Source of the DNA: Candidatus Latescibacterota bacterium
Lineage (GTDB): Bacteria; Latescibacterota; UBA2968; UBA8231
Direction: 5' to 3'
Length of the DNA: 64,000 nucleotides
Assembly (NCBI GenBank): GCA_965217585.1
Contig: OZ244561.1
Coordinates: 1,888,001 to 1,952,000, forward strand
The notes under the pieces are model-generated. The model was given only the letters and a program-made list of their open reading frames with translations. It searched no databases and had not been told where the DNA came from. Positions within the stretch are counted from its first letter, which is position 1, and each line of letters begins with the position of its first letter. The translations under genes were made by a program, and so were the position numbers. Below, in pieces: positions 13,934 to 51,399 of this stretch.

Positions 13934-15751
13934 ATGATGCAAAAAATAGCCTTCATTTTTTGCATGGCCTGGAGCCTGCCAGCCTGCGATTTAGGCTCTA
14001 ATACAGTGCAATTCGCGGATGTCACGGCCCAATCCGGGATTTCCTTTACCCATACCAATGGTTCTGCCGGGGAGTATTTTCTGATAGAAACGACCGGAGC
14101 GGGCGGGGCCTTCTTCGACTATGACAACGATGGCGACTTGGATGTTTACTTGGTGGATGGATTCGATCTGCAAGGCATCCGCTCGGTTCCCATCAATCTC
14201 GTGTACCAGCAGGGCGATCACTACTGGGTGAGGAAGCCGAACCAAGACGGGGGCGCGCGTTCAAGGGACGCGGCAAATTACGCGGTCGATCTTGCGCCTT
14301 GGCCCGACTCCGCCGGCGTCCCGCCCCGTAATGTGCTGTACCGGAACAATGGGGACGGCACCTTTACTGATACCGGCCAAAAGTCCAAGACGGGCGATAC
14401 GGGCTATGGCATGGGATGCGCGATAGCCGACTACGACAACGACGGCGATCAGGATCTCTACGTGACCAACTACGGGCCGAATGTGCTATACCAGAACAAT
14501 GGGGACGGCACTTTTGCCGATGGTACGGAGCGGGCGGCTGTGGGCGCATCCCAGTGGAGTACGAGCGCTGCTTTCCTAGACTACGACAACGACGGGGAGC
14601 TAGATCTCTACGTGGCTAACTACGTGGATTTCACTGTCGAGACCAACAAGGTATGCGGCGGATATGCGAGGACGAATTCCCAAGGCTACCGGGCCATCGT
14701 CGAGGCTACCCGTTCGTATTGCGCACCTCTGGAGTACAGAGGGGTGCCGGATGTACTGTATCACAACAACGGGGATGGGACCTTTGCCGATGTCTCGGTC
14801 GCGGCCGGGATCAATGATCCATCCGGCAAGGGGTTGGGCGTGGTCGCCTTGGACTACGATAGTGACGGAGATCAGGATTTGTTTGTCGCCAACGATGGGA
14901 CGCCGAACTTTCTCTACCAGAACCTAGGGGACGGAAGGTTTGCAAACGCGGCCTTAACAAAAGGTGTGGCCCACAACGGGGCCGGCGAGTCAGAGGCCGG
15001 CATGGGGGTGGATTTTGGGGATTACGACAACGACGGCGATTTTGATCTTTTTGTCGCCAATTTCTCTTACGAGACCAATACCCTCTACCGCAATGAGGGG
15101 GTTTTCTTCAAGGACGTGACGGCCGCGGTCGGGCTGGCCGAGCCGAGCCACCGCTTCCTCGGCTTTGGGACGAACTTCCTGGACTACGACAACGACGGCG
15201 ACCTCGACCTGTACGTGGCCAACGGGCATGTGCTGGACAAGATCGCCCTGTTCCAGTCGGGGGTCGAGTACATGCAGGAACACCAACTCTTCCGCAACGA
15301 CGGCGATGGGAGTTATACGGAAACCTCTTCGATCTCGGGCGAGTGGTTTTTGCACAAGCAGATCAGCCGTGGTGCCGCCTTCGGAGATTACGACGGAGAC
15401 GGGGATGTGGATGTCCTAGTGACCAACTGCGGTGGGGAAGCCAAACTGGTCCGCAACGACGGCGGCAGTCGAGAGAATTGGCTGATGGTGCGAACCGTGG
15501 GAACCCAGAGCAACAGGGACGGGATAGGAGCTAGGGTGCGGGTGGTAGCGGAGGGGCTGGAACAGATCCGTCAGGTGCGGAGCGGTTCCAGCTACCTGAC
15601 GGCGAGCGACCCACGGCTCCACTTTGGTTTGGAATCTAGGACCAAGGTCGATCTAGTAGAAGTGAGATGGCCCAGTGGTCTGGTGCAGCGATTAGAACAG
15701 GTCCCAATAAATGAAGTGTTAATCATCGAGGAAAAGGTCGCTTCGGAATAA
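13934..15751 (+). CDS. CRTAC1-like FG-GAP/VCBS repeat protein with C-terminal ASPIC/UnbV domain (module A)
   Basis: Many DYDNDGDxDLYVxN repeats, LYxNNGDGTF, NRDGIGARV, GSSYL..DPRLHFGL, VRWPSG. Possible lipobox LPAC. Confidence 0.9.
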   Translation: MMQKIAFIFCMAWSLPACDLGSNTVQFADVTAQSGISFTHTNGSAGEYFLIETTGAGGAFFDYDNDGDLDVYLVDGFDLQGIRSVPINLVYQQGDHYWVRKPNQDGGARSRDAANYAVDLAPWPDSAGVPPRNVLYRNNGDGTFTDTGQKSKTGDTGYGMGCAIADYDNDGDQDLYVTNYGPNVLYQNNGDGTFADGTERAAVGASQWSTSAAFLDYDNDGELDLYVANYVDFTVETNKVCGGYARTNSQGYRAIVEATRSYCAPLEYRGVPDVLYHNNGDGTFADVSVAAGINDPSGKGLGVVALDYDSDGDQDLFVANDGTPNFLYQNLGDGRFANAALTKGVAHNGAGESEAGMGVDFGDYDNDGDFDLFVANFSYETNTLYRNEGVFFKDVTAAVGLAEPSHRFLGFGTNFLDYDNDGDLDLYVANGHVLDKIALFQSGVEYMQEHQLFRNDGDGSYTETSSISGEWFLHKQISRGAAFGDYDGDGDVDVLVTNCGGEAKLVRNDGGSRENWLMVRTVGTQSNRDGIGARVRVVAEGLEQIRQVRSGSSYLTASDPRLHFGLESRTKVDLVEVRWPSGLVQRLEQVPINEVLIIEEKVASE

Positions 15752-15856
15752 GGTTAGTACTTCAATACACGACACCAAATTTACGTTGCCGCATAGCCCG
15801 GCGTTAGGTTTATTGGTGTTGCAAAAATTTCCTCGCTGATTGCGCCCAAACGACCT

Positions 15857-17842
15857 ATGCCCATACCTATTCCCGAGCATTACTTAGCTCCCCAGTCCGC
15901 TCCGCGAGAATCCTCCTCCGGTTTTACGATCAGAGCACTTATTATCGGAACCGCGCTCGCGTTTTTTATTGGTGTGGCGGCTCCGTACGGCAATATGATC
16001 ATTCGCGGATCGTATATGGCGCTGAATATCAGCACCCCTATCGCTTTTTTTATTTTCTTCGTGCTGGTGGGGGGCATAAATGTGGCGCTGCGCCTGATGC
16101 GGGTGAACTGGGCGCTAAAGCCGGCCGAACTGGTGCTCATCTACATCATGATGATCATCGCCGCTACAGTACCTACCAAGGGCTTTACCGAAGCCTGGCT
16201 TCCCAAGATCACGGGTCCCTATTACTACGCTACACCTGAGAACGATTGGGCCACGCTGGCCCATCCGCATATCAAAGCCTGGCTGACTCCCCGCGACCCG
16301 GAGATGATCAAGTATTTTTTTGAGGGGCTTCCCAAAGGCATGGAAATCCCCTGGGGGGTCTGGCTCGAACCTCTTTTTCACTGGAGCCTGTTTTTCCTGG
16401 TCCTCTGCTTTGTGATGATCTGCATATCGGTCATTCTGCACCGGCAATGGGCCCACAATGAACGACTGATCTACCCCTTGATCCAAGTCCCCTTGGACAT
16501 GATCAAAGAGGACTCAAAAGGTTCTCTGGTGAACCCCTTTTTCAAGAATACGGTAATGTGGGCGGGGTTTGCCATTTCCTTCTTCATCACCAGCGTAAAT
16601 GGTTTTCACAACTATTATGAAACCCTCCCCTCAATTGAGCTGGCCACCACTTTCAGCGCCTTTCGCGAGACGATGTCGATACCCATCCACCTGAGCTTTT
16701 CCATGATTGGGTTTTCATATCTCATCAGTCTGGATATCGCCTTCGGAATTTGGTTGTTCTACCTGCTGGGCACACTGGAGCAGGGGATATTCAACATCTT
16801 GGGGATAGCCAGTACGGAGACGCTGGATATATTCGCTACGGCTGCACCTATTATTGCGCATCAGGGAATGGGAGCCTTCATCGTCTTGGTGCTGGCGAGT
16901 CTGTGGGGGGCCCGCAGGCATCTGATGGATGTATTTAACAAGGCTTTTAGGCGGACTTCGACCGTCGATGATTCCCAGGAGTTGCTGTCGTACCGCACCG
17001 CGGTACTCGGCTTGATCGCCGGTTTGGGATTTATAGGGATCTGGCTCTACAAAGGCGGCCTAGCCGCTTGGCTGGTACCTATCTTTCTCTTTGCCGTTTT
17101 CGTCCTCTTTATCGCGCTGACCCGGGTGGTTGCCGAGGCCGGCTTGGCCGCGGTACGGGCTCCCCTAACACCCGTCTCATTTCTGATCTCTGGGGTCGGT
17201 TCATCTGCCATCGGTCCGGCCGGCCTAGTCTTCCTAGGACTCAGCTTTTCCTGGGCAGTCAACTTCAGGACCTTTGTGCTGGCCTCTGCTGCCAACGGGT
17301 TGAAGCTGAGCGACGAAGTTGGCGCAGGGCAGCGGAAAAGACCGCTGTTCTGGGCCATGATGCTGGCCGTAGTGGTCAGTCTGGTGGGTTCGACCTGGAT
17401 TATACTCGCCATGTGCTATAAGTATGGGGGAATCAATCTGGATCAATGGTTCTTCGTCGGCGGGGCCTCGAGGCCCTTTGATTTTGTGGTTCCGTACTTG
17501 ACCACACCTGTCGAGGCCAATCTAAGCGGCTGGTTGTGGACGGGTGTAGGAGGAGGGATCATGAATATATTGATCGTCATCCGACAAAAATTACTCTGGT
17601 GGCCGTTTCATCCACTCGGGTTCTTGATCAGCACCACGTGGATGGCGCAGTTCGTCTGGTTCAATGTATTTCTGGCTTGGCTCGTAAAACTCTTGGTCCT
17701 GCGCTACGGAGGGGCGCGGTTGTACCAAGCTAGCCGACCGTTTTTCTTAGGTTTGATCCTGGGGCACTTTACCGTTGCGGGAGTGTGGCTGATCGTGGAT
17801 CACTTTACCGGCATGACGGACAATCAACTGATGTGGTTGTAA
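15857..17842 (+). CDS. DUF6785/DUF6784-like polytopic membrane protein, putative peptide/oligomer transporter (module A)
   Basis: About 16 hydrophobic segments; YYATPENDW, RQW..ERL.YPL, DDS.ELLSYR.AV, YKYGGINL, WPFHPLG, K..VLRYGG..LY...RPFFLGL. Confidence 0.75.
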   Translation: MPIPIPEHYLAPQSAPRESSSGFTIRALIIGTALAFFIGVAAPYGNMIIRGSYMALNISTPIAFFIFFVLVGGINVALRLMRVNWALKPAELVLIYIMMIIAATVPTKGFTEAWLPKITGPYYYATPENDWATLAHPHIKAWLTPRDPEMIKYFFEGLPKGMEIPWGVWLEPLFHWSLFFLVLCFVMICISVILHRQWAHNERLIYPLIQVPLDMIKEDSKGSLVNPFFKNTVMWAGFAISFFITSVNGFHNYYETLPSIELATTFSAFRETMSIPIHLSFSMIGFSYLISLDIAFGIWLFYLLGTLEQGIFNILGIASTETLDIFATAAPIIAHQGMGAFIVLVLASLWGARRHLMDVFNKAFRRTSTVDDSQELLSYRTAVLGLIAGLGFIGIWLYKGGLAAWLVPIFLFAVFVLFIALTRVVAEAGLAAVRAPLTPVSFLISGVGSSAIGPAGLVFLGLSFSWAVNFRTFVLASAANGLKLSDEVGAGQRKRPLFWAMMLAVVVSLVGSTWIILAMCYKYGGINLDQWFFVGGASRPFDFVVPYLTTPVEANLSGWLWTGVGGGIMNILIVIRQKLLWWPFHPLGFLISTTWMAQFVWFNVFLAWLVKLLVLRYGGARLYQASRPFFLGLILGHFTVAGVWLIVDHFTGMTDNQLMWL

Positions 17843-17988: not shown

Positions 17989-18043
17989 GAAAATGGCGGT
18001 TCGCGAAAGGCCAAAATTGCAAAAAGTGTCTGAACTATTGACT

Positions 18044-18820
18044 ATGAAAGCCACTTTTCGGCTTGTGACGAAAGGGAGATCACAGCGGTTATCCGCTCTG
18101 GCCGCAGGTTTTTTACTGGCCGGTCTTTGCGCTACGTGCGGGTACAGGTACTACGCCGGTCCCTTGCAACCCCTCCCCGACGCCGAGCAACACACCGGCA
18201 TGCAAGTTAGCGATGACGGGACGGTGCTGTTCGTTCAGGAGAGATTTGAAGTCGGAGTGCGTCCCCAGACTGACGCGGAACTGAACCGGTTGTATCCTAT
18301 GTACTCCAAGGGCGGTATAGAGTCTATAAATCCCTATACCTACGGCGACTGGAAAGATCCCGAAACCGGCTCGACGCCGCAGCGCTTCACGATCTTCCTT
18401 TTAAAGGTTAAAAATTACAGCTATCCCAAAGTGCAAATCGACCCTTTGAAGATTTCGCTCATCGCTGCAAACGGTCGCGAATACCCGGCTCTAGATCCGC
18501 TCAAATTCGACGAGTACTATCGTCCGTACGCCACTGCTTATTCCGGGAATCTGTACGACCGCTACGAAGAGCGCAAAGACCTGTTCGCCTCTTCTAGATA
18601 CGGCTCTGAACCCGTATTCAGCGGTCAGGAAGCCCAAGGATTTCTGGTCTTTCCCGCCCTACATCCAGATGTGCGGGAATTGCGCCTCAAGCTCAAAGAT
18701 GTAGCGATCAGATTCGACTTTCGGGGCGATCCAATAGAAATGCTCGACCTCGAGTATCTTTTTTTTCGGGAAACCGGCCGGATTTATCCCGATGGGACGA
18801 CGAGATTGTCTTCGGGGTAA
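18044..18820 (+). CDS. Conserved putative lipoprotein of unknown function (module A)
   Basis: Hydrophobic leader ending CATCG. Homologous to 36340-37074 (DDG.V..V.ER.E.G.RP.TD.ELNR, NP.TYGDWK, T.FLL.VKNY.YPKV..DP, VFSG....G...FP.L..DV, RFD.R..P.E..DL). Confidence 0.8.
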   Translation: MKATFRLVTKGRSQRLSALAAGFLLAGLCATCGYRYYAGPLQPLPDAEQHTGMQVSDDGTVLFVQERFEVGVRPQTDAELNRLYPMYSKGGIESINPYTYGDWKDPETGSTPQRFTIFLLKVKNYSYPKVQIDPLKISLIAANGREYPALDPLKFDEYYRPYATAYSGNLYDRYEERKDLFASSRYGSEPVFSGQEAQGFLVFPALHPDVRELRLKLKDVAIRFDFRGDPIEMLDLEYLFFRETGRIYPDGTTRLSSG

Positions 18821-19043: not shown

Positions 19044-19979
19044 ATGAAACGATTAGCAATGCCTTTCATGGCGCTAGCTCTGGTAGCCATGCTGTCGAGC
19101 AGTTCCTGGGGCCATAAGCCCGATGGCGTAGAGTTCTTCGCGCCCCATATTCCGGATGAATTGATCCCGGATATAGATGGAAATTCCGCTGACTGGATGA
19201 ACTGGTTCCCGTCGGACCTGGTCATTACCCACGATATGCTGCTCTCGCGTGCCGGCAATGACCCGAGGGACATTTCGGACATCGACGTGAGTATGATGGT
19301 CGCTTGGAACGAGACCACCCAGAAACTCTACCTCGGTCTCGAAGCCTTCGACAATTTTATCCACCGCGATTCAGAGAACCGGGTGGATATATACACAGAG
19401 GATGGCTGGACCATCAGCACCGATCCCGATCACAGCGGTGGTTTCTTCCACGGCGGAGATCTGGAGCAGAACGAGATGGGTACCCAAGGGCAACAGTGGG
19501 TAGTCCATCCTCCCGCCCAAGGACCGGCGACTATGTGGATTTTCAGTTTCGGTGAGAACTTCTTTGAGAAGATTGAGACCCGCGAGTGGGACGCGATGTG
19601 GTTCGGCCATCCGCCGTGGGGCCATCTCGGCGTAGGTCCCCCAGAGGCCGTGCCGGTCAATGAAGGGGATACCAACGTCACCTTGTTCTATGAAATAGCT
19701 TGGTCCCTGTTCGATCATCTGGATTACGACGGCCCCGACTCCAGTGTGCCCCATGTATTCGAAGAAGAGCAAATCATCCACCTGAACATCCACTACCAGG
19801 ACCACGACGAAAACGGCGATGATTGGGATTCGCAGTGGGGCCTGAACGACGAAACCCACGCCACCCGGGACGGGTCCGCTGCACCTGACTGGGTTATGGT
19901 GAAGGTTCCCATCGAAGCCACCGAAGCCACGAGCGTAGAAGGAGAAACCTGGGGGAGGATCAAAGCCTCTTTCCGCTAA
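19044..19979 (+). CDS. Exported CBM9/DOMON-like protein with C-terminal WGxIK motif (module A)
   Basis: GAGGAG RBS and signal peptide; IDGNSADW, 'AWN....LY...D', YEIA, 'IHLNIHYQDHD'. Very acidic. Ends SVEGETWGRIKASFR. Confidence 0.75.
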   Translation: MKRLAMPFMALALVAMLSSSSWGHKPDGVEFFAPHIPDELIPDIDGNSADWMNWFPSDLVITHDMLLSRAGNDPRDISDIDVSMMVAWNETTQKLYLGLEAFDNFIHRDSENRVDIYTEDGWTISTDPDHSGGFFHGGDLEQNEMGTQGQQWVVHPPAQGPATMWIFSFGENFFEKIETREWDAMWFGHPPWGHLGVGPPEAVPVNEGDTNVTLFYEIAWSLFDHLDYDGPDSSVPHVFEEEQIIHLNIHYQDHDENGDDWDSQWGLNDETHATRDGSAAPDWVMVKVPIEATEATSVEGETWGRIKASFR

Positions 19980-20010: not shown

Positions 20011-20050
20011 TAGATTGAAGGGATGGGATTTTTCTCATCCCTTCAATCTA
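20011..20050. terminator. Strong stem-loop after the WGxIK gene (terminator or mRNA stabiliser)
   Basis: TAGATTGAAGGGATG-gga-tttt-tct-CATCCCTTCAATCTA: 15 perfect bp plus 3 further pairs; no downstream U-tract. Confidence 0.7.
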
Positions 20051-20068
20051 GCCAATGGGAGAACAACA

Positions 20069-20440
20069 GTGAAGATCTACGCACTTGCAATTGCGGCGTT
20101 GACAAGCATCTGTGCTTTGGTCGCCTGTGAGGAGGTTGATCTTTCTACCGGACCTTCGGGGTCCACCGGCAGGACTGAACTAGTCAGATTCGATAACAAG
20201 TCGAATTTTGATCTCCAGATTACCATTGGCGCGTGCTTTCAGGATTTCGTCTTGGACGCTGGGCGCGAGCGGACCATTGAATGCAATCCGGCAGATGGCG
20301 CAGCAAGCTTTGACGTCGGCATCGTTCGAACAGATAAAGAAGACGCCAACTGGGCCGGCTCCGCTTCAAAGGGGCAGTCCCTCCTCATCCTCACCAATCC
20401 CTGGCACGGCGGATTCTTCACCGTAGAGGTTGAAGAATAA
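20069..20440 (+). CDS. Small lipoprotein of unknown function
   Basis: GGGAG RBS and GTG start; MKIYALAIAALTSICALVAC lipobox; beta-rich body. Confidence 0.7.
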   Translation: MKIYALAIAALTSICALVACEEVDLSTGPSGSTGRTELVRFDNKSNFDLQITIGACFQDFVLDAGRERTIECNPADGAASFDVGIVRTDKEDANWAGSASKGQSLLILTNPWHGGFFTVEVEE

Positions 20441-20471
20441 GCTAAGCGGGCGGATTCTCCGCACCGCGGGA

Positions 20472-22277
20472 ATGCAAAGCATGGAGCCGATTGGGCGAAA
20501 AGTTCTGCTGGTATCCACTTGGGTTTTGCTGGCACTGATCTCTGCCAAAAGCACCTGGGGCGTGGAAGTCTTGGGCATCGGCAACGAGCAGAACCCTTGG
20601 GAAGCTATGGGTACCATGGAGAACATTGATACCACCACGGATCCAGGGTGGATTCAGCCCCGACGCACCGAAGCCACGGAAAATTTGAGCCTCGGTGCCC
20701 AAGGAAGAGGGGGAGGTATGTCCACGCCCCAGCCATCTGTGCGCCAGGCCGGCAACCTGAACAATATGATAGATGGGGATGTAAACACGGTTTTCGACGG
20801 GAGCAGGGCCCGGCAAGTGGGGGGCAGAATGGATCTGGACCTGGGCTCGATTTTCGGTGGGGTCGAGAGAATTCGCTTCTACCCCAGCCCGACCTTCAGC
20901 GACAAGTTTCTGAAGGGGTACGAAGTGTACATCAACGACGGTAGCGCGGAAATGCAGGTTGGCGGGGTGCTGCAGTGGACGCTGGTGGAAAAGGCCGAGA
21001 AAAACACCGACAGTACCGTACAGATGCGAATTCCGTCCCAGTACGTGCGCCATGTCAGGATTGTGTTCACCACGCCGCTGCCTTGGGAAATTGCCGAGTT
21101 GGAGGTGTACAGCCGCGGCTTTGTACCCCGAGCAAACTATACTTCAGAGGTGATAGACCTAGGTGGGCTGGCTAATTTTGGCCAGTTGAAGTGGGCTGCA
21201 GAAGAGCAACCTCGAGCCTCGGTGCATATCTTTACCCGAACCGGAGCCACGCCCGATCCCCTTAAATATTACCAACTAAAAGAAAAAGGACTCAAGACCG
21301 AACAGACCGAGGTGTCCGCAGATGATTACAACAGCCTGAAAGAGGCCGAGCGGGAAAAGGGTTTGGATGCGGAGAACTGGAGTCCTTGGTCTCCGGTGTA
21401 TACCCGTGCATCTGGAGAACAGGTGGCCTTCGTCGAACCTCGGCGCTACTTCCAGTTCAAGTGTGAGTTTGCCAGTGATTTTTTTACCCAGGGAGCGCGG
21501 CTCGACTCGCTGGCGTTCGAATTTTCCACCCCTCCGGTAGCGCGTTTTGTCTGGGGTGAGGTCGGGCCGCTGGAGGTCAACGCCGGAGAACCCACTCTGT
21601 TTACCTATGTGGTGCGAGCCAAAATCGAGGAAAGCGATACGGGATTCGATGCCTTGGAGATCGCTACTCCTTCTCGGGCCACAATTGAGGAACTGAAAAT
21701 CGGTGGCACAGCGGTGGCGGATTTCGTCCAGGAAATCGAAGACGACCGCATGGTAATCCGCTTCCCCAATCATAGGGTCGTGGATACCACTCCGGTGGAG
21801 TTGAGTTTTGAGGGGGCGGTTCTGGTGTACGGGACGCGTTTTACCGGCAAAGTCTTCGATACCCAGACCGCGGAGTTACCGCAGCCCATTACCGCAGGGG
21901 ATACATCCCCGGATTTGCCCAACGACGACCTGGCGGTGGCCGTGTCGCTCGGAGAGACCATTGTCGCAGGTGGTCGCATGGTCCCCAATCCTTTCACCCC
22001 CAACGGCGACGGCGTGAACGATCTGGCCTCCATACACTACCAGATTCTCAAGTTGACCAAGGAGGTTCCGATCACCGTGGCGATCTACGACCTTTCGGGC
22101 AGACTGGTCCGCGATTTGTACTCGGGCACGGACGTGAGCGGGATTTATGCCTTGGATTGGGATGGTCTGGATAACAGTGGGCGTTTGGTAGTTCCGGGAC
22201 TCTACCTCAGTCGTATATCAGTTGACGCCGATAGGGGCGCAGGGGACAAGGTTGCACTCATAGCGGTGGTCTACTGA
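20472..22277 (+). CDS. Exported protein: discoidin-like domain plus C-terminal TPNGDGxND/FlgD-Ig tail (module A, short type 1)
   Basis: Signal peptide; MIDGD..T, LDLG..F...IRFYP, WEIAELEVY, RTG.TPDP..Y, NWSPWS, PNPFTPNGDGVND, IYDLSGRLVR, WDG.DNSG.LV.PGLY. Confidence 0.82.
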   Translation: MQSMEPIGRKVLLVSTWVLLALISAKSTWGVEVLGIGNEQNPWEAMGTMENIDTTTDPGWIQPRRTEATENLSLGAQGRGGGMSTPQPSVRQAGNLNNMIDGDVNTVFDGSRARQVGGRMDLDLGSIFGGVERIRFYPSPTFSDKFLKGYEVYINDGSAEMQVGGVLQWTLVEKAEKNTDSTVQMRIPSQYVRHVRIVFTTPLPWEIAELEVYSRGFVPRANYTSEVIDLGGLANFGQLKWAAEEQPRASVHIFTRTGATPDPLKYYQLKEKGLKTEQTEVSADDYNSLKEAEREKGLDAENWSPWSPVYTRASGEQVAFVEPRRYFQFKCEFASDFFTQGARLDSLAFEFSTPPVARFVWGEVGPLEVNAGEPTLFTYVVRAKIEESDTGFDALEIATPSRATIEELKIGGTAVADFVQEIEDDRMVIRFPNHRVVDTTPVELSFEGAVLVYGTRFTGKVFDTQTAELPQPITAGDTSPDLPNDDLAVAVSLGETIVAGGRMVPNPFTPNGDGVNDLASIHYQILKLTKEVPITVAIYDLSGRLVRDLYSGTDVSGIYALDWDGLDNSGRLVVPGLYLSRISVDADRGAGDKVALIAVVY

Positions 22278-43347: not shown

Positions 43348-46005
43348 ATGGTCATGGGTATAGGTAAAAAGACTCGGTCAACGGTCATTGCAGCCGTTTT
43401 GATGTTATTAGTTCTGCAGGGGCGAGTTGCCGCTGACTTAGCGGCAGGTTTTTTCGACCCCTATGTCACGTCCGGTCCGCGCGTCTCTGCGGAGACGATC
43501 GCCCCTGTGCTGCGGAAGTGGTATCTGCCCCAGACCCTCTACCAGATGTATGAGTGGAAGAACTGGGAGTACACCAACTACGCGCGCCGCCAGTACAGCC
43601 GCTACGTGAATACCGAACTCGAGGGTGATCGCTACTACGATCTCTACGGCAACTACATCACCCGGGGCTGGCGAATTTACGAGTGGAGCCAGGCGCAGCC
43701 GACGGAGCTCGGAAGCGGCGTGTTCAAGTCGCCAGAGTTTGGCTCTTGGTTCAACCGTCTCGTGGTCTCGTCCACTTCTCAAGGGCAGTTCCATTCGTCC
43801 TTCATGGTAGGTGAGTTGATACGAACAACCCTGACACCGATGACTTTCTCGAAGCCTCTCTTTGACGGTGTCCAGTGGGATTTGGCGACGGACAAGTACG
43901 AGATGACTCTGCTGGCTTCTCGTGCCAACAATCCAGCGCCCGTGGCTATCTCGCGCGACAATCCGTCCTCGGCGACGACGGTATTCACCAATCTGCTCGG
44001 CTGGCGTGGTATCATGCAGATGGGGGACTTCCTGAAGCTTGGCGGTACCTACGTGAACGCCGGGCACTGGAACAGCAACCTCAACGTGACACAGAATTCG
44101 ATGAAGGGGACGCTCTCGGGCCGTCTGAATACGGGAAATGTCCGCCGTCTCGTCGTGCGTCTGTCCGATGATTCACCCGAGGACGGAGTCGGTGGCACCC
44201 TTCTGTACCGCGAGCGAATCTTCATCGACGGCGTCGAGCATCCGGAGATCAAGCCCCTCGTCGACGGCGGCGTACAGCGGCGGGGGCTCATCGAGGCCAG
44301 CGGTGGCGATGTCGTTCTGCTGACATACGACATCGAGCGCGACTTCTTCCCGACCCTTGAGGACTCGATCACGGATCTCAAGGAGATCCGCCGGATTGAG
44401 GTCGAGTTGGTCGTGGCCAACGATTACTTCGTGGAGATGACGTCGAACCTGCAGACGAACAACACCGGCGAGCCGGTGTTCCTGCCCCAGGCGAGGGCCG
44501 CCGGCAACATCCGGGACGGGTCGAATCAGCAAGTCCTGCGCTTCGACTATGGACTGCCGACAGCCAACGAGATCCTTGGGATGACTTTCGAGGTCTCGGA
44601 CCTGGCCGGATTCAACCTGCGAGGCGAGTTCGACCTCAACCGCCGGTTCCGCCGGTTCCCGAATGAGGGCATCACTCGCAATCAGCAACTAGCCAAGAAC
44701 CAAGCTCAGGCCTACTACGTGACGGCTTCGCAGATGCGGTATCCGTGGTTCGTCTATGGCGAAGCCTTCAGTATGGACCCCGACTATAACACGAGCATGT
44801 TCATCCCCGACTCTCGCGGCGTCGTAAACTACGAGAACGAACTCGTGTACTTGTACGAGTTCATCGACGACAACGATGACCAGGACCGGTACCCTGATTG
44901 GAAACGGCGCTACACCGGGGGCGGAAGCTCCGATACGGATTTGCAGTTCTCCGATCGCGAAGTCTTTCCCGGGTACGACGAGAACAACGATCTCGTGTCC
45001 GACTTCAACCAGAACGACAACTCCCAGCCTGACTACGTGGAGCCCTTCATTCGCTACCGAGTAGATCCGTTGGAGTTCCTGTTTGGCACGGACATGAACA
45101 ACAACACGATCATCGACCGGTTCGAGAACGACCGCGAGCCCGACTTTCCCTACAAGCGGGATCACGAGGGCTACAATGTCTACGTCGGCGTCGAGATCAC
45201 GCCGGGCAGCCGCGTGATGATCGGTCGTTTCCGAGAGGACCAGTTGGGCAGTAACCGACGCAGCAAGTCGACCTATGGCATGCTGACCTGGGCAGCAGAC
45301 TATCCAAGTCACGGCCTAGAGCTCCAGTACTTCGACTTCCTGCGGAGCGTCCAAGACAACATCCCCGACGACGTGATCATGTGGGTCCAGCCCCCTCTGT
45401 CTGGCGGCGGGATGGAGGATGTTCTCGACCCGCTGATCGCTCAGGATGCCCTGACCAACACGGCTTATCTGCAGGCCGACTACCTGCGTTGGGCACCGCT
45501 GAACCTGCACGCGAAGCTGAAGCACGAGGTCTACCATCAGCGCGGGGATCAGGGGGAAATTAATCGGGATCAGCATCTGCTCGGTCTGGTCACCAAGGCC
45601 GACTACAATATCGACATAGGTCCGCTATGGAAAATTCAGCCCAAGTGGAAACAGCTCTACATGCGCAAGACGCCCGCCCAGCGCGACCAGCTCAAAACGC
45701 AGGAGTTGGCACAGATCTTCTTCCTCGTGAGCCAGAACGAGCTTACGAATACGCTCTGGCTCGAGTCTGGCCTCGAGTACGAGATTTTCCGCAATCTCAG
45801 GTCGCGGCCGGACCCAGTACCGGTGGGCTATCTCGATGACTTCAGGCAGTTTGTGCTAGCAGCGCAGTTCACGAACGCGTCCGCCTACCTCGGATACCAA
45901 CTCACGGCGAATATCGGATGCCGCTGGGAACGGCGCGATTTCCGCGACGAGTCAGAGTCGAACACGGTGATCTTTCTGAGGATGATTGCCGGCCTCCAAG
46001 AGTGA
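43348..46005 (+). CDS. Large exported, probable outer-membrane protein with Asp-rich repeats (module B)
   Basis: Collinear with 24687-27302 (KWY..Q.LY, NYAR..Y.RYV, YDLYG.Y.T.GW.IYEW.Q, IRTTLTPMTFSKP.F, DDSPEDG, TSNLQTN, FDYGLPT.NEI, DDNDDQDR.PDW). Ends ..MIAGLQE. Confidence 0.75.
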   Translation: MVMGIGKKTRSTVIAAVLMLLVLQGRVAADLAAGFFDPYVTSGPRVSAETIAPVLRKWYLPQTLYQMYEWKNWEYTNYARRQYSRYVNTELEGDRYYDLYGNYITRGWRIYEWSQAQPTELGSGVFKSPEFGSWFNRLVVSSTSQGQFHSSFMVGELIRTTLTPMTFSKPLFDGVQWDLATDKYEMTLLASRANNPAPVAISRDNPSSATTVFTNLLGWRGIMQMGDFLKLGGTYVNAGHWNSNLNVTQNSMKGTLSGRLNTGNVRRLVVRLSDDSPEDGVGGTLLYRERIFIDGVEHPEIKPLVDGGVQRRGLIEASGGDVVLLTYDIERDFFPTLEDSITDLKEIRRIEVELVVANDYFVEMTSNLQTNNTGEPVFLPQARAAGNIRDGSNQQVLRFDYGLPTANEILGMTFEVSDLAGFNLRGEFDLNRRFRRFPNEGITRNQQLAKNQAQAYYVTASQMRYPWFVYGEAFSMDPDYNTSMFIPDSRGVVNYENELVYLYEFIDDNDDQDRYPDWKRRYTGGGSSDTDLQFSDREVFPGYDENNDLVSDFNQNDNSQPDYVEPFIRYRVDPLEFLFGTDMNNNTIIDRFENDREPDFPYKRDHEGYNVYVGVEITPGSRVMIGRFREDQLGSNRRSKSTYGMLTWAADYPSHGLELQYFDFLRSVQDNIPDDVIMWVQPPLSGGGMEDVLDPLIAQDALTNTAYLQADYLRWAPLNLHAKLKHEVYHQRGDQGEINRDQHLLGLVTKADYNIDIGPLWKIQPKWKQLYMRKTPAQRDQLKTQELAQIFFLVSQNELTNTLWLESGLEYEIFRNLRSRPDPVPVGYLDDFRQFVLAAQFTNASAYLGYQLTANIGCRWERRDFRDESESNTVIFLRMIAGLQE

Positions 46006-46078: not shown

Positions 46079-47872
46079 TTGCACCTGCCAGCCAAAGTGA
46101 TCGGACCCCCGCCAAGCCGCCGACAGCCCGCCAGTTGGTTGTTCGGGGGGCTCCTGCTTGCCAGTCTGGTGGGAGGCGGATGTGGGGACGAGGACGCAGA
46201 ACCGGAAGCGGACGGGGACGAGCTAATTGGGGCCCAGTACGTGGACATAACCGCCGAGGCTGGGATCGATTTCTCCCACGTAAATGGAGCCAGTGGTCGT
46301 TATTATTACGTGGAGACGTACGGGTCGGGCGCTGCCTTCCTCGACTTTGATGCAGACGGTCATCAGGATCTCTACGTCGTCAACAGCGGCCCTCTGCCGG
46401 GTTTTGCGGTTGAGGGCGAGGGCGAGCCGCCGGCAAATGTCCTCTACCGCAACGACGGGGCTGGATCGTTCCAAAATGTGACAGCCGCCGCCGGCGTAGG
46501 GGATCGATCATACGGGATGGGAACATGTGCCGGGGACATCGACAACGACGGCTACGTGGACCTGTATGTCACGAACTTCGGTGCCAATGTCCTCTACCGG
46601 AACCACGGGAACGGTACGTTCACCGATGTCACCGACGACGCCGGTGTCGGTGACGAGCGCGTCGGTTCAAGCGCTGCTTTCGCCGATTGGGACCGGGACG
46701 GCGACCTCGATCTCTACGTGGCGAACTACGCCAAGTTCTCCGTGGACGCGGATCAGGCCTGTTTTCAGGGGAAGATCCGGGTCTACTGTGATCCAGCGCA
46801 ATACGAGGGAGACTCGGGCGTGTTCTACCGGAACGACGGTACCTGGCGCTTTGCCGACGTGACGCGGGAAGTGGGTGGCTACACCGAGGCGGGCCGACAA
46901 CTCGGAGTCGTCTTCGGCGACTACGATGATGACGGGGACGCGGACCTCTACGTTGCCAACGACGGCATGGCCAACTTCCTCTTCAACAACGACGGGAAGG
47001 GCTTCTTCACGGAGGTGGGAATGGTCTCGGGCGTGGCCCTGAACAATGGAGGACGTCCCGAGGCCGGCATGGGGACCGACTTCGGGGACTACGACGGCGA
47101 TGGCGATTTCGATCTGGTTGTCTGCAACTTTCAATGGGAGAACAACCGGCTCTACCGCAACGAAGGCAAGGGGTTCTTCTTTGATGCCACGGCCCTGACC
47201 CGGGTCGGCGCGGCAACGCTTCCCGTGCTGACCTTCGGGACGGATTTCTATGACTACGACAACGACGGCGACCTCGATCTTTTCATGGCCAACGGGCACG
47301 TGAACGACAAGGCCCAACTCTTTGACCAAGCCGTCACGTTCGCGCAACAGGACCAGTTGTTTCGCAACGAGGGAGACGGCACCTTCACCGACGTGACACA
47401 GCAGTCGGGGCCCGGCCTGCAATGGCAGCTCGTCGGACGCGGTGCGGCCCTGAGCGACTACGACAACGACGGTGACACGGACCTCTACGTATGCAACAAC
47501 AATGGCCCTGGTATCCTGCTGCAGAATGACGGCGGCAACCGCGGCCACTGGATCACGGTGAAGACGGTCGGTACAGTGAGCAATCGCGACGGGATCGGCG
47601 CGCGGATCACTGTGCGGGCCGGAGACCTAGTGATGATCGAGGAGGTGCGCAGCGGCAGCGGTTATCTGTCGCAGAACGATCTCAGGGTTCACTTCGGCCT
47701 AGGCGAGAGGACGATGGTCGATGAGATCTGCATCCGCTGGCCCAGCGGGATCGTACAGACGATTGGGCCGGTGCGCGTTGACCAATTCCTCATCGCCACT
47801 GAGCCGGCGGGGATAGAGCCCTATTCGGTCCACGCAGCCGGCCGAGAGCCTTCGTGTCATCCTTCCCGCTAG
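46079..47872 (+). CDS. CRTAC1-like FG-GAP/ASPIC-UnbV protein (module B); start uncertain
   Basis: DxDNDGDxDLYV repeats, NRDGIGARI, GSGYLSQNDLRVHFGLG, IRWPSG. Possible lipobox GGGC. Confidence 0.88.
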   Translation: MHLPAKVIGPPPSRRQPASWLFGGLLLASLVGGGCGDEDAEPEADGDELIGAQYVDITAEAGIDFSHVNGASGRYYYVETYGSGAAFLDFDADGHQDLYVVNSGPLPGFAVEGEGEPPANVLYRNDGAGSFQNVTAAAGVGDRSYGMGTCAGDIDNDGYVDLYVTNFGANVLYRNHGNGTFTDVTDDAGVGDERVGSSAAFADWDRDGDLDLYVANYAKFSVDADQACFQGKIRVYCDPAQYEGDSGVFYRNDGTWRFADVTREVGGYTEAGRQLGVVFGDYDDDGDADLYVANDGMANFLFNNDGKGFFTEVGMVSGVALNNGGRPEAGMGTDFGDYDGDGDFDLVVCNFQWENNRLYRNEGKGFFFDATALTRVGAATLPVLTFGTDFYDYDNDGDLDLFMANGHVNDKAQLFDQAVTFAQQDQLFRNEGDGTFTDVTQQSGPGLQWQLVGRGAALSDYDNDGDTDLYVCNNNGPGILLQNDGGNRGHWITVKTVGTVSNRDGIGARITVRAGDLVMIEEVRSGSGYLSQNDLRVHFGLGERTMVDEICIRWPSGIVQTIGPVRVDQFLIATEPAGIEPYSVHAAGREPSCHPSR

Positions 47873-49389
47873 TCGTTTGTTGCATGGCAGGGGTCCTAAC
47901 CCTGCTGGCCGGGCTCGGATGCGAAACGGAGCCGGCTGACCCCGCGGTCCATCTAGCCGCCAGTCGGCAGGCCGTCGAGAGCGACCCGGACGACCTCGAT
48001 GCTCGCTACGAGTTAGGTGTGGCAGCGCTGGAGGCCGGCTCCCATCGCGAAGCGCTGGCTTACTTTGATCGCATTCTGCGCGCGGATTCGAGTCACGTCG
48101 GGTCGTGGTCTGGCACTGGCCAAGTCCTGTCCCTCCTTGGCCAGGAGGATAGGGCTATGGCTGCCTTCCGCCGTGCCCTCTCTCTTAATCCCGACGATGT
48201 GGCCGCTCACCGCGGACTGGGACTGATCGCTCTGCACCAACAGCGATACGCAGAAGCGCGCCAGTCGTATGGCCGTGCCGTCGAACTGATGCCCGGACAC
48301 GCACCGTCCCGCTACAATCTTGGAGTGGCCTACTCCAAGGCGAGCGCCTACGAAGAGGCCGTGCGTCAGATGCGGCAGGCGATCGAACTGGACGAGGAGT
48401 ATGTCCTGCCCTACATCGCCCTCGGCAGGATATACTGCGCCAAGCTGGGAGACTGTGAGGAAGGTATCCGACTTCTGCGGCAGGCGCTGGAACACCTCCC
48501 CGACGAGCCCCTGCTGCACACGGAGTTCGGTAGTGCCGAGTTGCAGCTCGGACGCGCCGATCAGGCGGTGGCGGCCTTCCAGCGGGCCCTGCGTCTGGAT
48601 TCGGTCGCCGTCGAGGCCCACGTCGGCCTCGGGACAGCGCAGGCGCAACTCGGCCAGTGGGCGGCGTCCGAGGCGGCTCTGCAGCGCGCCGTCGAGTTGA
48701 ACCCAGTCTTCCCGGAGGCTCACTATCAGCTCTCCCTGCTTTTCATGAGACAGGGCCGGACCACCGAGGCGAAACGGAAGATGGAGACTTTCGAGCGCAT
48801 CAATGTCTACTTCGATCGGATCCGCCACTACCGCTCCCTGCTGGCCGACGATGCGCGTAACGTCGATGCCCTGATCGGCTTGGGCACGATCCTATCGCGA
48901 CTCGGCATGCCGGCACGGGCGGCCGCGCAGTACGAAAAGGCACTGGCCGTTGCGCCAAGCCACGCCGAGGCCTGGCACAACTTGGGCAGCGCCTACTTCC
49001 GTCTCGGCCGGCTGGAGGAGGCGATCCAAGCCTATCGGCGGGCAGTGGACCTAGTGGATGGGTACGCCCAAGCTTGGACCAATCTGGGAACCGCGCAGCT
49101 AGTAGCGGGAGAGACGGTGGCGGCACGCAGCTCGTTTCAACGAGCCCTTGCCTTGGCACCCGATGCTGCCGATGCCTACAGCGGCCTAGGAAACGCGCAT
49201 CTACGCGAAGGGGATCCCCGTGCGGCGATCAGACGCTTCCAAGAGGCGCTGCGGCTAGATTCCGCCCTGACCAGCGGGCACTACGGCTTGGCGATGGCGT
49301 ATGGTGCGTTGGGCGATACGGTCCGGGCGGCACAGCAGCTACGGTTCTTCCAGCGATATGCAGAACTGCAGCCAGCAAGCGCGCCTTGA
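47854..49389 (+). CDS. TPR-repeat (lipo)protein
   Basis: More than 10 TPR units (A.YNLG..Y..G..EEA...Y.RA); LAGLGC lipobox-like sequence. Confidence 0.88.
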   Translation: MSSFPLVVCCMAGVLTLLAGLGCETEPADPAVHLAASRQAVESDPDDLDARYELGVAALEAGSHREALAYFDRILRADSSHVGSWSGTGQVLSLLGQEDRAMAAFRRALSLNPDDVAAHRGLGLIALHQQRYAEARQSYGRAVELMPGHAPSRYNLGVAYSKASAYEEAVRQMRQAIELDEEYVLPYIALGRIYCAKLGDCEEGIRLLRQALEHLPDEPLLHTEFGSAELQLGRADQAVAAFQRALRLDSVAVEAHVGLGTAQAQLGQWAASEAALQRAVELNPVFPEAHYQLSLLFMRQGRTTEAKRKMETFERINVYFDRIRHYRSLLADDARNVDALIGLGTILSRLGMPARAAAQYEKALAVAPSHAEAWHNLGSAYFRLGRLEEAIQAYRRAVDLVDGYAQAWTNLGTAQLVAGETVAARSSFQRALALAPDAADAYSGLGNAHLREGDPRAAIRRFQEALRLDSALTSGHYGLAMAYGALGDTVRAAQQLRFFQRYAELQPASAP

Positions 49390-49461
49390 ACGCCTTGTTT
49401 CTAGGCTCTGATCCGTGGTGCCACCTATCTCTGGATATAACACAGACTAAGAGGACGCAGT

Positions 49462-51399
49462 ATGGATCACGCCACACACGTGCGTCATTCGGTCTCGCTA
49501 AGAGCAGCCCTAATGGGGCTGGTTTGCTGCCTAGTGATCGCCGCGGGCGAACCATATGGCGTGCTCTTTCTGAGGGGATCCGCGCTGGCTGCCGATTTCT
49601 CCACCGGGGCGGCCCTCTGCCTCTTTCTCCTGCTCACCCTGTTGCTCAATCCCGCCGCCAGGCTGTTGACCGGTTCCCAGTTGCGGAGTGGCGAACTGGC
49701 CACCGTGTACATCATGATGATCGTGGCCTCGGCCATCCCTTCTTGGGGACTCACCATGAACCTGATTCCCCTGCTGGGAGGTTTCTTCTATTACGCCACC
49801 CCTGAAAATGAGTGGACCTCGTCAATCGTGCCGCATCTGCCCGAGTGGCTGGTTCCCACGGATCGCGAGGCCCTGTGGAAACTCTTCGAGGGAAGCGCAC
49901 GCGGCGAGGGGGTGCCGTGGGAGGCGTGGGGCACACCGCTGCTGGCCTGGTCTCTGTTCAGTACCACCATCTACTTCGTCACCCTCTGCTTGCTGGTCAT
50001 CCTGCGCAAGCAGTGGGTTGAGCACGAGCGGCTGCTGTTCCCGCTGGCCATCCTCCCCTTGGAGATGAGCACCCGGCAGGAAGATAGGTGGCTGCCGGCC
50101 TTCTTGCGCAACCCTTTGATGTGGATCGGTTTCCTGATCCCCGCCGCGATCAACAGCATCAATGCCCTGCATGCCTACTTCAACTTCATCCCCCGGATCA
50201 ACTTGAATGTTTCTCTGCCGATCCTGCGCGATTCCGTCAGTCTCAACTTCACGCCGCGGTTCGAGGTGATCGGTCTTTCCTATCTGCTCAGCCTAGACGT
50301 CTCCTTCGGAGTGTGGTTCTTCGCCTTCCTGGCCCATCTGCAAACGGGCATCGAGCGGATGATGGGCTGGAGCATCGGGCCTATCCAGCCTTTTTCCGAT
50401 CCGGGGACTCCCAGCGTCGCGCATCTGGCCCTAGGGGCTCTGTTTTTCCTCGTTGGCGCGAGTTTCTGGAATGGCCGGCAGCATCTCAGGGACGTGTTGC
50501 GCAAGGCTTTCCGAGGCGATCTGCAAGTCGACGACAGCGTCGAACTGCTCTCCTATCGGACGGCGGTGTTCGGCACTTTCCTGGGCAGTCTGCTGGCGCT
50601 GGCCTGGCTCCTAATCGCTGGTCTGAACCTGCTGCCCGCGTTGATTTTCCTGATCTCGGCCCTAGTGATCTTCGTCGGCCTGGCGCGCATCATCTCTCAG
50701 ACCGGCCTGGCCTATGCTCGGGCTCCGGTGACAGCCCCGGTTTTGACAGTCAATACCCTCGGCTCCTCGCTGGTGGGACCGGGCGGTCTGGCCATTCTCG
50801 GTCTGAACTTCGCCTGGGCAGCCGACGTCAGGACTTTTGTCATGGCTTCGGCTGCCACCGGTCTGAAGATAGCCGAGGTGATGCGCCTAGAATATCGCCG
50901 TCTGTTTTGGGTGATCATGGTGGCTATCGTTGCCAGCCTCATCGGTTCGATCTGGTCCGTCGTCACGCTAGCCTATACCTATGGAGGAATTAATCTGGAT
51001 GGGTGGTTCTTCAATGGTCTGTCCCACTATGCCGGCGACTGGATCACCCGGAACATCAACAATCCCCAACCGATACACGGTTGGCACTTGGGGTTTGCCG
51101 GAATCGGGGCGGTATTGATGGGCTGCATGACCTACATCAAAAGCCATTTCGTCGGTTTTCCCATCCATCCAGTGGGCATGGCTCTCGGCCTGACGGCACC
51201 TATCTACCAAGTGTGGTTTTCCATTTTCATCGCCTGGCTCCTCAAGGTTTTCATCCTCAAATACGGCGGTGTTAAGCTCTATCGGCATCTGCGTCCATTC
51301 TTTTTAGGTATGACGCTGGGGATGTTTACCTCGGCAGGGCTGTGGCTGATTATCGATTTCTGGAACGGCATGTCGGGGAATCGCCTTACCGTGGGATGA
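49462..51399 (+). CDS. DUF6785/DUF6784-like polytopic membrane protein (module B)
   Basis: GAGG RBS; YYATPENEW, RKQWVEHERL.FPL, DDSVELLSYR, YTYGGINL, FPIHPVG, LKYGG..LY..LRPFFLG. Confidence 0.75.
   Translation: MDHATHVRHSVSLRAALMGLVCCLVIAAGEPYGVLFLRGSALAADFSTGAALCLFLLLTLLLNPAARLLTGSQLRSGELATVYIMMIVASAIPSWGLTMNLIPLLGGFFYYATPENEWTSSIVPHLPEWLVPTDREALWKLFEGSARGEGVPWEAWGTPLLAWSLFSTTIYFVTLCLLVILRKQWVEHERLLFPLAILPLEMSTRQEDRWLPAFLRNPLMWIGFLIPAAINSINALHAYFNFIPRINLNVSLPILRDSVSLNFTPRFEVIGLSYLLSLDVSFGVWFFAFLAHLQTGIERMMGWSIGPIQPFSDPGTPSVAHLALGALFFLVGASFWNGRQHLRDVLRKAFRGDLQVDDSVELLSYRTAVFGTFLGSLLALAWLLIAGLNLLPALIFLISALVIFVGLARIISQTGLAYARAPVTAPVLTVNTLGSSLVGPGGLAILGLNFAWAADVRTFVMASAATGLKIAEVMRLEYRRLFWVIMVAIVASLIGSIWSVVTLAYTYGGINLDGWFFNGLSHYAGDWITRNINNPQPIHGWHLGFAGIGAVLMGCMTYIKSHFVGFPIHPVGMALGLTAPIYQVWFSIFIAWLLKVFILKYGGVKLYRHLRPFFLGMTLGMFTSAGLWLIIDFWNGMSGNRLTVG

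Follow-up and report, generated by a model that had tools for sequence, protein, structure and literature searches.

Modules A and B of a Latescibacterota genome belong to about 55 diverged envelope cassettes with a possible role in surface capture

Two kinds of described system come closest to the genes treated here. One is the SusC/SusD type of polysaccharide-utilisation locus (PUL); the other is the type B cargo of type IX secretion systems (T9SS) of Bacteroidota, which binds, or is anchored by, PorP-like barrels (PMC9143113, in the part of the article available), SprB-SprF and PG1035-PorP-PorE being examples. For Latescibacteria, the available part of a 2015 genome analysis proposes only non-specific porins for passage across the outer membrane (PMC4454575). 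The present analysis concerns a window of 64,000 nt (positions 1,888,001 to 1,952,000 of contig OZ244561.1, assembly GCA_965217585.1) from a Candidatus Latescibacterota bacterium, whose genome forms one contig of 7.32 Mb with a G+C content of 0.595. In this window an earlier note had described an envelope module of nine genes occurring twice, as module A (13934-30941) and module B (33194-51399). The modules prove to be members of a set of about 55 diverged cassettes that this genome carries. The reading favoured here, to which we give an even chance, is that each cassette captures a specific substrate at the cell surface, that the loci are PUL-like, and that many of the cassettes have recruited an OPT-like importer of the inner membrane.

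All 20 open reading frames (ORFs) of the two modules were found at the coordinates given by the earlier note, and the part list was borne out, since Pfam scans and pairwise BLASTP place the same families in both modules. Module A, encoded wholly on the plus strand, opens with an FG-GAP/ASPIC protein (A1, family FG) and a DUF6785+DUF6784 protein (A2, family T), followed by a lipoprotein (A3, family L), a CBM9-like protein (A4, family C) and a small lipoprotein (A5); three proteins with a FlgD-Ig/CHU_C tail (A6, A7 and A9, family I) flank a family-less protein of 871 aa (A8, family O), and a double parvulin (A10, family P) comes last. Module B holds the same families in a changed gene order, with a TPR protein (B9) in addition. 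Packing is tight in the stretch that starts with L or C and runs over I and O to P, where genes overlap or are separated by 3-38 nt. The paralogues are as far diverged as had been claimed: cognate pairs share 26-46% identity in BLASTP (E 5e-21 down to 0), with A8/B7 at 46%, A1/B8 at 45%, A3/B3 at 44%, A2/B10 at 41% and A7/B6 at 34%, and with A4/B2 (29%, E 5e-21) and A10/B1 (26%, E 6.5e-24) as the distant pairs. Given the common part list, these identities, the shared motifs and the tight packing, the duplication is genuine and goes well beyond what chance would produce.

The claim that the module occurs twice did not survive a count across the genome, which holds 55 core-gene runs containing an O gene. 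Families were counted by phmmer searches with the window proteins against ORFs of at least 90 aa, with each ORF counted under the family that it matched best (E <= 1e-8), which gave 181 I, 80 O, 78 T, 62 TPR, 58 FG-GAP, 45 P, 43 C and 25 L members. In a non-overlapping set of 5650 ORFs the corresponding numbers are I 160, O 78 (75 of them full-length), T 73, TPR 58, FG-GAP 54, P 43, C 40 and L 22, and here the eight families together cover 14.3% of the genome. PF20581 (DUF6785) has 78 matches in the genome, all above the cut-off, and none in 14 control genomes. At least one I gene is present in 45 of the 55 O runs, P in 28, C in 18 and L in 12, while T lies within three genes of 23 runs and 15 runs unite C, O and P with at least two I. 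As the run definition is strict, these counts are lower bounds. The number of I paralogues per cassette ranges from one to six and is usually one to three.

The families are also linked to O well beyond expectation. Within six genes of an O gene, I is found in 90% of cases (29% expected), P in 51% (9%), C in 49% (8%), T in 45% (14%) and L in 32% (5%), and 40 of the 78 O genes have an I gene as their immediate upstream neighbour on the same strand. When the distance matrices of O and of its nearest neighbour from each family were compared (Mantel tests, 999 permutations), O correlated with L (r 0.87), C (0.66), T (0.52), P (0.50), I (0.47) and TPR (0.31), each at p = 0.001. Because these matrices correlate, the cassettes can be said to have duplicated as blocks, T included when attached. 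The FG-GAP proteins, at r = -0.16 (p = 0.80), are thus independent neighbours, so that the co-evolution of components, proposed earlier as a check, is supported for I, C, P, L and T with O and not for FG-GAP. A gene of the TPR family lies within six genes of 57% of the FG genes (12% expected), and the FG-GAP/ASPIC and TPR pair is a frequent neighbour yet an independent unit. Neither is module B the nearest paralogue of module A: A3, A4, A6, A7, A8 and A9, that is, its C-I-I-O-I-L parts, find their best matches in the positional equivalents of a cassette at 7,006,430-7,021,481, and the parts of module B rank 2nd to 93rd. Hence, the idea of a functional unit rather than a recent duplication is upheld insofar as the sets recur and co-diverge, but a single unit of nine genes is unsupported.

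The O family has no name in the databases searched. Neither A8 nor B7 matches a Pfam family even at E 10, and NCBIfam gives no family for A8 at the same threshold. A search of 1.84 billion representatives recovered homologues of O in 654 clusters at 50% identity, and at 90% identity there are more than 1200 clusters. Among the 120 clusters listed, all are 'hypothetical' or unnamed and carry no Pfam domain. Where a taxonomic label is given, it is in most cases Latescibacteria(ota) and in a few that of Gemmatimonadota, Firmicutes or Desulfobacterales metagenome-assembled genomes. An AlphaFold2 model of A8, built on a 58-sequence alignment (pLDDT 82.4, pTM 0.83), shows long antiparallel strands. 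Nearly all Foldseek matches listed for this model are outer-membrane barrels, with low TM-scores (0.1-0.37), and the 50 matches in the VIA-align 2 listing are beta-barrels of membranes, in almost every case the bacterial outer membrane (Z 9.2-14.1), the longest alignments being those with SlpA (415 residues), MtrB (397) and LptD (356-361) at Z 10.6-11.4. With TM-scores low or Z-scores intermediate throughout, O has no close solved relative.

By our own reading of the strand list from the model, the barrel has about 24 strands and a periplasmic N-terminus. It carries an inserted beta domain (residues ~264-382) and a conserved acidic loop (~456-585), both of which would lie on the outer face, as judged from strand parity and not from a topology calculation. 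Conservation within the family is highest in the acidic loop, since D, N and G columns that are invariant or nearly so fall for the most part at residues 487-585. No plug domain is seen in the A8 model, and none of the 25 Plug matches of the genome falls in an O ORF. The model thereby presents O as a plug-less outer-membrane beta-barrel of an unannotated family. A DUF6029 identity for O, raised by an Atlas lead (0.89), was rejected, as PF19494 matches another ORF of 555 aa and not O.

Next to the barrel stand the I proteins, all six of which, in modules A and B, carry a TPNGDGxND or SPNGDGIND motif. CHU_C is above its Pfam cut-off (27 bits) in five of them (29.4-39.6 bits), B5 scoring 21.8. 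The short members are 27-37% identical to one another (BLASTP), and the long members A7 and B6 are the only ones with an F5/8-type-C domain above cut-off, the match in B4 remaining below it (18.3 < 28.2). Translation of B6 probably starts at ~41006, with a signal peptide after M38. FlgD was the only match of A7 in a PDB sequence search, and the 81 homologues of the I family that were found are unnamed or 'hypothetical', apart from one 'gliding motility-associated C-terminal domain'. The AlphaFold2 model of A6 (pLDDT 88.3) is a string of beta-sandwich domains, for which Foldseek returned the discoidin/CBM module 4zz5 (TMt 0.79), F-lectin and the N-terminal region of galactose oxidase, as well as chains of Ig-like domains and the tail region of PorU; none of its matches is a catalytic fold. 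On this modelled structure, I proteins appear as chains of discoidin/CBM-like and Ig-like domains with a tail resembling the C-terminal domain (CTD) of type B cargo.

Among the accessory families, the C proteins are only marginally recognised by Pfam, CBM9_1 being below its cut-off in B2 (20.7 < 23.4 bits) and absent in A4; a profile of 13 C proteins matches the CBM9 structure 1i82_A over 112 positions (E 1.7e-5). WGxIK occurs at the C-terminus of both A4 and B2, and an extreme C-terminal tag, TAVExxSWGRIKAxF, closes 33 of the 40 C proteins (in the window at 19930-19979 and 36110-36162). In its alternating hydrophobic residues and terminal F, the tag resembles a beta-signal. The same tag is found genome-wide on 34 non-C proteins, comprising six of a second FlgD-Ig family, five of an unknown 323-aa family, one FGE-sulfatase and 22 unclassified proteins. 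The tag has the look of a signal for sorting or docking that has not been described before.

The alignment of the L family shows a lipobox column of the G-C-G type. Four of the 22 L lipoproteins have C-terminal extensions of ~150-180 aa (G000:C1:6005699-6007087 on the minus strand, 7049248-7050486, 4907541-4908776 and 1298998-1300197). The protein at 6005699 has a TonB_C match above the cut-off (25.6 bits), the gene at 1298998 adjoins a Plug-domain receptor, and the extension at 7049248 has no Pfam match; a TonB_C look-alike in the L protein at L073:2417-3652 was discarded, Pfam finding none at E 0.001. As for the P family, A10 and B1 each have two stretches at which Rotamase and Rotamase_2 exceed their cut-offs, but all NCBIfam equivalogs stay below theirs, so that P cannot be assigned to a specific orthologue. 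A1 likely starts at 13934, followed by the lipobox LPAC, and contains seven DxDxDG motifs. None of the families T, O, L, C and FG has a name in NCBIfam. Overall, the view that the parts are envelope proteins is supported.

Concerning the T family, A2 and B10 do not match OPT in Pfam at E 10, and a PDB sequence search with T gave no match. Additional comparisons point to a distant relationship. The OPT model PF03169 makes weak colinear matches on three T genes, the best at 17.8 bits (E 0.002; cut-off 25.8), and an Atlas lead concerned one DUF6785 cluster with 11% OPT-annotated members. When 67 T paralogues were aligned with 13 true Latescibacterota OPT proteins by hhalign, a probability of 89.5% was obtained (E 2e-6, 521 columns), against 0.1% for reversed OPT and 0.2-0.4% for four unrelated polytopic families used as controls. 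Profile comparison thus places T as a remote relative of the OPT superfamily. A fifth family entered as a control, a 716-aa polytopic family of three members (G000:C1:1035669-1037819, minus strand), reached 94.7% against DUF6785; given this value and an adjacent DUF6785 gene, its sequences mark it as a divergent branch of the DUF6785 transporter superfamily.

Most T genes adjoin non-module genes. Pfam applied to cluster representatives of 977 neighbours of T, O, I, C, P, FG and L genes recovered GFO/IDH/MocA proteins (20), PhyH (19 + 10), sulfatases (15), MR/MLE enolases (15), aldo-keto reductases (12) and sigma54 activators with Reg_prop/Y_Y_Y sensor domains (8), in addition to FGE-sulfatase and ExbD. 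In an unbiased scan, which covered 119 of the 123 non-module ORFs of at least 200 aa around 20 randomly chosen T genes, Pfam found PhyH 14 times, sulfatase seven, Amidohydro_2 and GFO_IDH_MocA four each, MR_MLE three, and GH32 and BNR_2 two each. The surroundings of T therefore have the make-up of catabolic loci, in which glycoside hydrolases are few. PhyH dioxygenases are the commonest DUF6785 neighbours (14 of the 119 ORFs), a proximity that hints at a shared substrate class.

Across the phylum, the cassette does not behave as a fixed whole. DUF6785 is present in 137 of 151 Latescibacterota genomes sampled. In 61 genomes, T and O occur together in 23, T only in 24, O only in 13 and neither in one; for I and O, the same genomes divide into 29 with both, seven with O only, one with I only and 24 with neither. 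The co-occurrence that had been proposed as a check is thus seen for I and O, whereas DUF6785 and O are independent, and the occurrence of families apart from one another, named in advance as speaking against a unit, is partly observed, in that DUF6785 and the barrel separate. The separation follows the families of the phylum: T is present in 30 of 30 genomes of f2, and O and I in none of 16 each, f3 and f8 being alike, and f10 has O in 13 of 13 genomes and T in none of the 13. First-look DUF6785 candidates number 25-68 per genome in f2, f3 and f8 (e.g., G063, G039 and G071), with no O, and the I family is missing there save in one f8 genome. Since DUF6785 is present in these families and the O barrel absent, DUF6785 must work there with other outer-membrane partners. 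From the tallies of T with O and of I with O, it follows that the core obligate across the phylum is I and O, that C, P and L are frequent accessories and that DUF6785 and FG-GAP/TPR are separable.

Gene order is retained over different distances. Module A is wholly syntenic in five close genomes (L001-L005), and the C-(L)-I-I-O core order is preserved in distant ones. Another Latescibacteria chromosome (L015, 3791-14203) has a counterpart of module B in which P, C, O and T are present as short ORF pieces, the I genes are missing, and FG-GAP and TPR are intact; this is either a decaying cassette or the product of assembly frameshift errors.

RNA libraries labelled sponge metagenome hold the locus or relatives of this genome, and the I-I-O-I stretch is partly present in 18 RNA-library runs from five studies, runs with small word shares being set aside for any naming of a habitat. 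Contigs from four runs of four studies were placed on module A. Two of them, from two studies, are long: one measures 7691 nt and spans 17700-25357, from L and C over A5, A6 and A7 into O, and the other, of 4695 nt, covers 18534-23235, at 95-99% identity. Cover is lacking at 13500-14100 and 30328-30928 in the runs placed, which is not evidence of silence. These contigs hint at expression of the cassette.

In the capture reading, I and C would stay attached to the cell surface, either on the barrel O or next to it, and would bind a cassette-specific glycan or glycoconjugate, of which O, as a putative pore, would pass fragments to the periplasm. P would escort the barrel or its partners across the periplasm, and T would be a proton-coupled inner-membrane importer. 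T is a separable module, placed beside many cassettes and more often beside PhyH, sulfatase and GFO/IDH/MocA genes, and the loci together would act like polysaccharide-utilisation loci without SusC/SusD. The structure-level description of the cassettes is solid, and their function is what we infer. A bolder form of this proposal is put forward more tentatively: a new nutrient-capture machine of the outer membrane, in which a plug-less, TonB-independent barrel of ~24 strands would be capped by up to three CTD-tethered lectins together with a CBM9-like protein and assembled by means of its own parvulin, and which would exist in dozens of substrate-specific versions and, with the expanded OPT-like permeases, may represent the phylum's independent invention of the PUL.

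Several points weigh against capture and import. Pfam finds no glycoside hydrolase or lyase in modules A and B, and the genome encodes 25 TonB-dependent receptors with a Plug domain. OPT transporters are known to carry peptides and metal chelates and are not known for sugars. As T and O occur independently across the families of the phylum, import via O and then T is not obligatory. Additionally, gene calls and family labels rest on crude ORF picking, the Mantel correlations may be inflated by a few deep clades, and the RNA-library contigs may reflect DNA carry-over or chimeric assembly, a contig across genes not being equivalent to a transcript.

The tails of the I proteins suggest another role, possible though rather less probable than capture, in which the cassettes serve display or adhesion only: O would be an analogue of PorP/SprF that anchors SprA-exported lectins for attachment to a host or to particles, and not for uptake. 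The CHU_C matches in five of six I proteins, the PNGDG motif in all six and the position of I directly upstream of 40 of the 78 O genes agree with such a role, as do the anchoring of type B cargo by PorP-like barrels in Bacteroidota (PMC9143113, with the scope given above), the separability of T and O across the phylum and the presence of the locus in sponge-labelled RNA libraries. With respect to an export route, the genome contains an SprA_N match (80.3 bits, in a 2153-aa frame) and a PorV-like ORF (153.8 bits, E 1.5e-44, below the cut-off of 250), which likewise speak for display. On the other side, GldM (GldM_1st) was not found in the genome, and a search for GldK gave nothing above the cut-off, only sub-cut-off FGE-domain matches. 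Searches of the genome for GldL and for PorP/SprF (PF11751) also gave no match and are uninformative, because the control genomes were equally silent. TIGR04131 is below its cut-off of 35 in all three I proteins of module A (23.5, 18.4 and 18.9). O is, moreover, far larger than PorP/SprF, T is near 45% of the O genes and co-diverges with them, and catabolic genes and regulators of the sugar-sensor type lie nearby, all of which count against display as the sole function.

It is improbable that the cassettes are instead secretion or assembly devices, in which O would export its own I proteins (and C) like an usher or TpsB, P would deliver them and the Ig-like tail or WGxIK tag would target them. 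The ~24 strands of our own reading and the FimD/PapC ushers among the fold matches recall ushers, a parvulin chaperone is near 51% of the O genes, the C tag ends like a beta-signal, and a complete T9SS motor was not detected by the GldM, GldL and GldK searches. Yet usher, POTRA and TpsB families are not found in O by Pfam even at E 10, usher and PapD families of the chaperone-usher pathway are absent among the module proteins (Pfam), and the FimD/PapC matches are generic to large barrels, with TM-scores in the range of 0.1-0.37; furthermore, P is present in only 28 of the 55 O runs, and an SprA-like gene exists in the genome. Finally, the notion that there is no system, only independently expanded envelope families adjacent by chance, is already disfavoured and very improbable, for even though chance neighbours are common among families of this size, with an I expected within six genes of 29% of random genes, and T and FG-GAP act as independent units, linkage is far above expectation, component distances correlate, cassettes are paralogous position for position, distant genomes share the gene order, and I and O co-occur across the phylum.

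The window holds more module-type genes than had been described, namely a third DUF6785 gene and two further FlgD-Ig proteins (Table 1), the latter belonging to a second FlgD-Ig family with 35 members near module genes genome-wide. Directly downstream of module B, SDR and sulfatase genes occupy 51505-54526 on the minus strand. Between the modules (30970-33092, minus strand), a MORN-repeat lipoprotein and a family-less protein with eight transmembrane segments are encoded; the latter has six paralogues in the genome, several of which adjoin parvulin or O genes. Upstream of module A, a stretch of low G+C at 4447-12825 (0.455 at 6001-8000) carries genes for a nucleotidyltransferase, an Mrr_cat restriction endonuclease and a zinc-ribbon protein, along with a tandem pair of AAA-ATPase_like + PDDEXK_9 paralogues, and looks like a defence or mobile islet. 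The G+C content is 0.548 in module A (13883-30941) versus 0.606 in module B (33194-51399), and that of the O genes ranges from 0.49 to 0.64; age, transfer or level of expression may account for the lower value of module A. A promoter and terminator scan of module A found sites no more numerous than in shuffled sequences.

Table 1. Features of modules A and B and of the third partial locus (window positions)
Feature	Coordinates	Strand	Assignment and evidence
A1 (FG)	13883..15751	+	FG-GAP/ASPIC-UnbV (CRTAC1-type), probable lipoprotein; FG-GAP_3 171.6, UnbV_ASPIC 78.2 bits; 45% identical to B8
A2 (T)	15857..17842	+	DUF6785+DUF6784 polytopic membrane protein; Pfam 456.8, 107.3 bits; 12 hydrophobic segments
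A3 (L)	17993..18820	+	Conserved lipoprotein, unknown fold; 44% identical to B3; Pfam/NCBIfam none
A4 (C)	19044..19979	+	Secreted, CBM9-like; ends in tag TSVEGETWGRIKASFR; family profile matches 1i82_A
A5	20015..20440	+	Small putative lipoprotein, module A only; kept only in 5 close genomes; 2 phmmer matches in genome
A6 (I, short)	20430..22277	+	Secreted, predicted multi-beta-sandwich, TPNGDGVND + FlgD-Ig/CHU_C tail; CHU_C 30.6, FlgD_ig 30.0 bits
A7 (I, long)	22297..24648	+	F5_F8_type_C_2 34.1, CHU_C 29.4, FlgD_ig 29.6 bits; 34% identical to B6
A8 (O)	24687..27302	+	Predicted outer-membrane beta-barrel; AlphaFold2, Foldseek, VIA-align 2
A9 (I, short)	27312..29162	+	CHU_C 39.6 bits; 37% identical to A6
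A10 (P)	29166..30941	+	Double-parvulin lipoprotein (SurA/PpiD/PrsA-like); Rotamase_2 74.8, Rotamase 59.5 bits, two stretches; lipobox FTAC
B1 (P)	33194..34984	-	Double parvulin (Pfam); divergent to rest of B; 26% identical to A10
B2 (C)	35257..36162	+	CBM9-like; CBM9_1 E 4e-4, 20.7 bits (< 23.4 cut-off); C-terminal SWGMIKASF tag
B3 (L)	36181..37074	+	Lipoprotein; 44% identical to A3; no Pfam family
B4 (I, short)	37071..38993	+	FlgD_ig 37.2, CHU_C 30.8 bits
B5 (I, short)	38980..40995	+	CHU_C 21.8, FlgD_ig 21.0 bits, both sub-cut-off; 32% identical to B4, A6
B6 (I, long)	40895..43342	+	CHU_C 38.7, F5_F8_type_C 27.5 bits
B7 (O)	43348..46005	+	Predicted outer-membrane barrel; 46% identical to A8 over 863 residues (BLASTP)
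B8 (FG)	46079..47872	+	FG-GAP/ASPIC lipoprotein; Pfam FG-GAP_3 + UnbV_ASPIC
B9 (TPR)	47854..49389	+	TPR lipoprotein; Pfam TPR families; family usually accompanies FG-GAP
B10 (T)	49462..51399	+	DUF6785+DUF6784; Pfam 415.3, 93.3 bits
Third partial locus	58610..63886	+	Two FlgD-Ig-tailed proteins of another subfamily + third DUF6785 gene (Pfam)
Third-locus FlgD-Ig proteins	58610-60511, 60390-61955	+	One with weak DUF6055 match
Third-locus DUF6785/DUF6784 ORF	61457-63886	+	DUF6785 395.3 bits; start probably later

No published description of the cassette was found, in agreement with the earlier statement that no described system has this composition, although the supplementary tables of PMC4454575 and PMC8163846 may hold the families under other names. 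The literature searched contained nothing naming DUF6785 or DUF6784, nor anything linking Latescibacteria with T9SS, and in the literature on polysaccharide utilization by Latescibacterota no title or abstract concerns the cassette. What is new here is the copy number, with ~55 cassettes, 78 barrels and a 14% share of the genome, the relationship of DUF6785 to OPT, the finding that T separates from I and O across the phylum, the co-divergence in blocks and the count of the C-terminal tag. About one seventh of a 7.3-Mb genome consists of eight families arranged in dozens of cassettes; one family has DUF names only (DUF6785/DUF6784), three have no Pfam family (O, L and C) and four have generic domain matches only. 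If these are uptake machines, they would explain how complex organic matter can feed an uncultured phylum of wide distribution that does so without SusCD, and would offer leads on DUF6785/DUF6784 as OPT-like importers, on an unannotated family of large barrels, on type-B-like CTDs beyond Bacteroidota and on a new C-terminal tag. Should the cassettes prove to be adhesion arrays, they would form a candidate repertoire by which symbionts recognise the host matrix.

SlpA of Deinococcus, MtrB, LptD and the FimD/PapC ushers, barrels that lack a plug or are filled by a partner, are like O only in being large barrels, with TM-scores of 0.13-0.37 and no sequence relation. The DUF6785+DUF6784 profile aligns end to end with the OPT family over the 521 columns mentioned above, but T is below the Pfam cut-off for OPT, is expanded to 73-78 copies per genome and has neighbours that suggest the catabolism of sugars or sulfated compounds rather than peptides.

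T9SS type B cargo resembles the I proteins in a CHU_C/type-B-like CTD that opens with PNGDGxND, and likewise has a barrel gene beside the cargo genes and many cargo-barrel pairs per genome. In contrast to PorP/SprF, O is ~870 aa long with ~24 predicted strands and has no PorP_SprF match (the controls being silent). Here, usually one to three paralogous cargoes accompany each barrel, together with a CBM9-like protein and a parvulin, and the cassettes sit in Latescibacterota rather than in Bacteroidota. Of the export machinery, only SprA_N and a sub-cut-off PorV-like ORF were seen, GldM being not found, GldK sub-cut-off and the GldL search uninformative.

With SusC/SusD PULs, the cassettes have in common that dozens of diverged loci combine an outer-membrane barrel with surface proteins of carbohydrate-binding type, often near an inner-membrane importer, sulfatases, oxidoreductases and Reg_prop/Y_Y_Y sensor regulators. 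They differ in that O has no TonB-dependent plug and that there is no SusD, as had been stated, among the 20 module proteins scanned with Pfam, no genome-wide SusD search having been made. Moreover, the binding proteins are CTD-tailed here instead of lipid-anchored, many loci have a parvulin of their own, and the importer is OPT-like rather than a member of the major facilitator superfamily.

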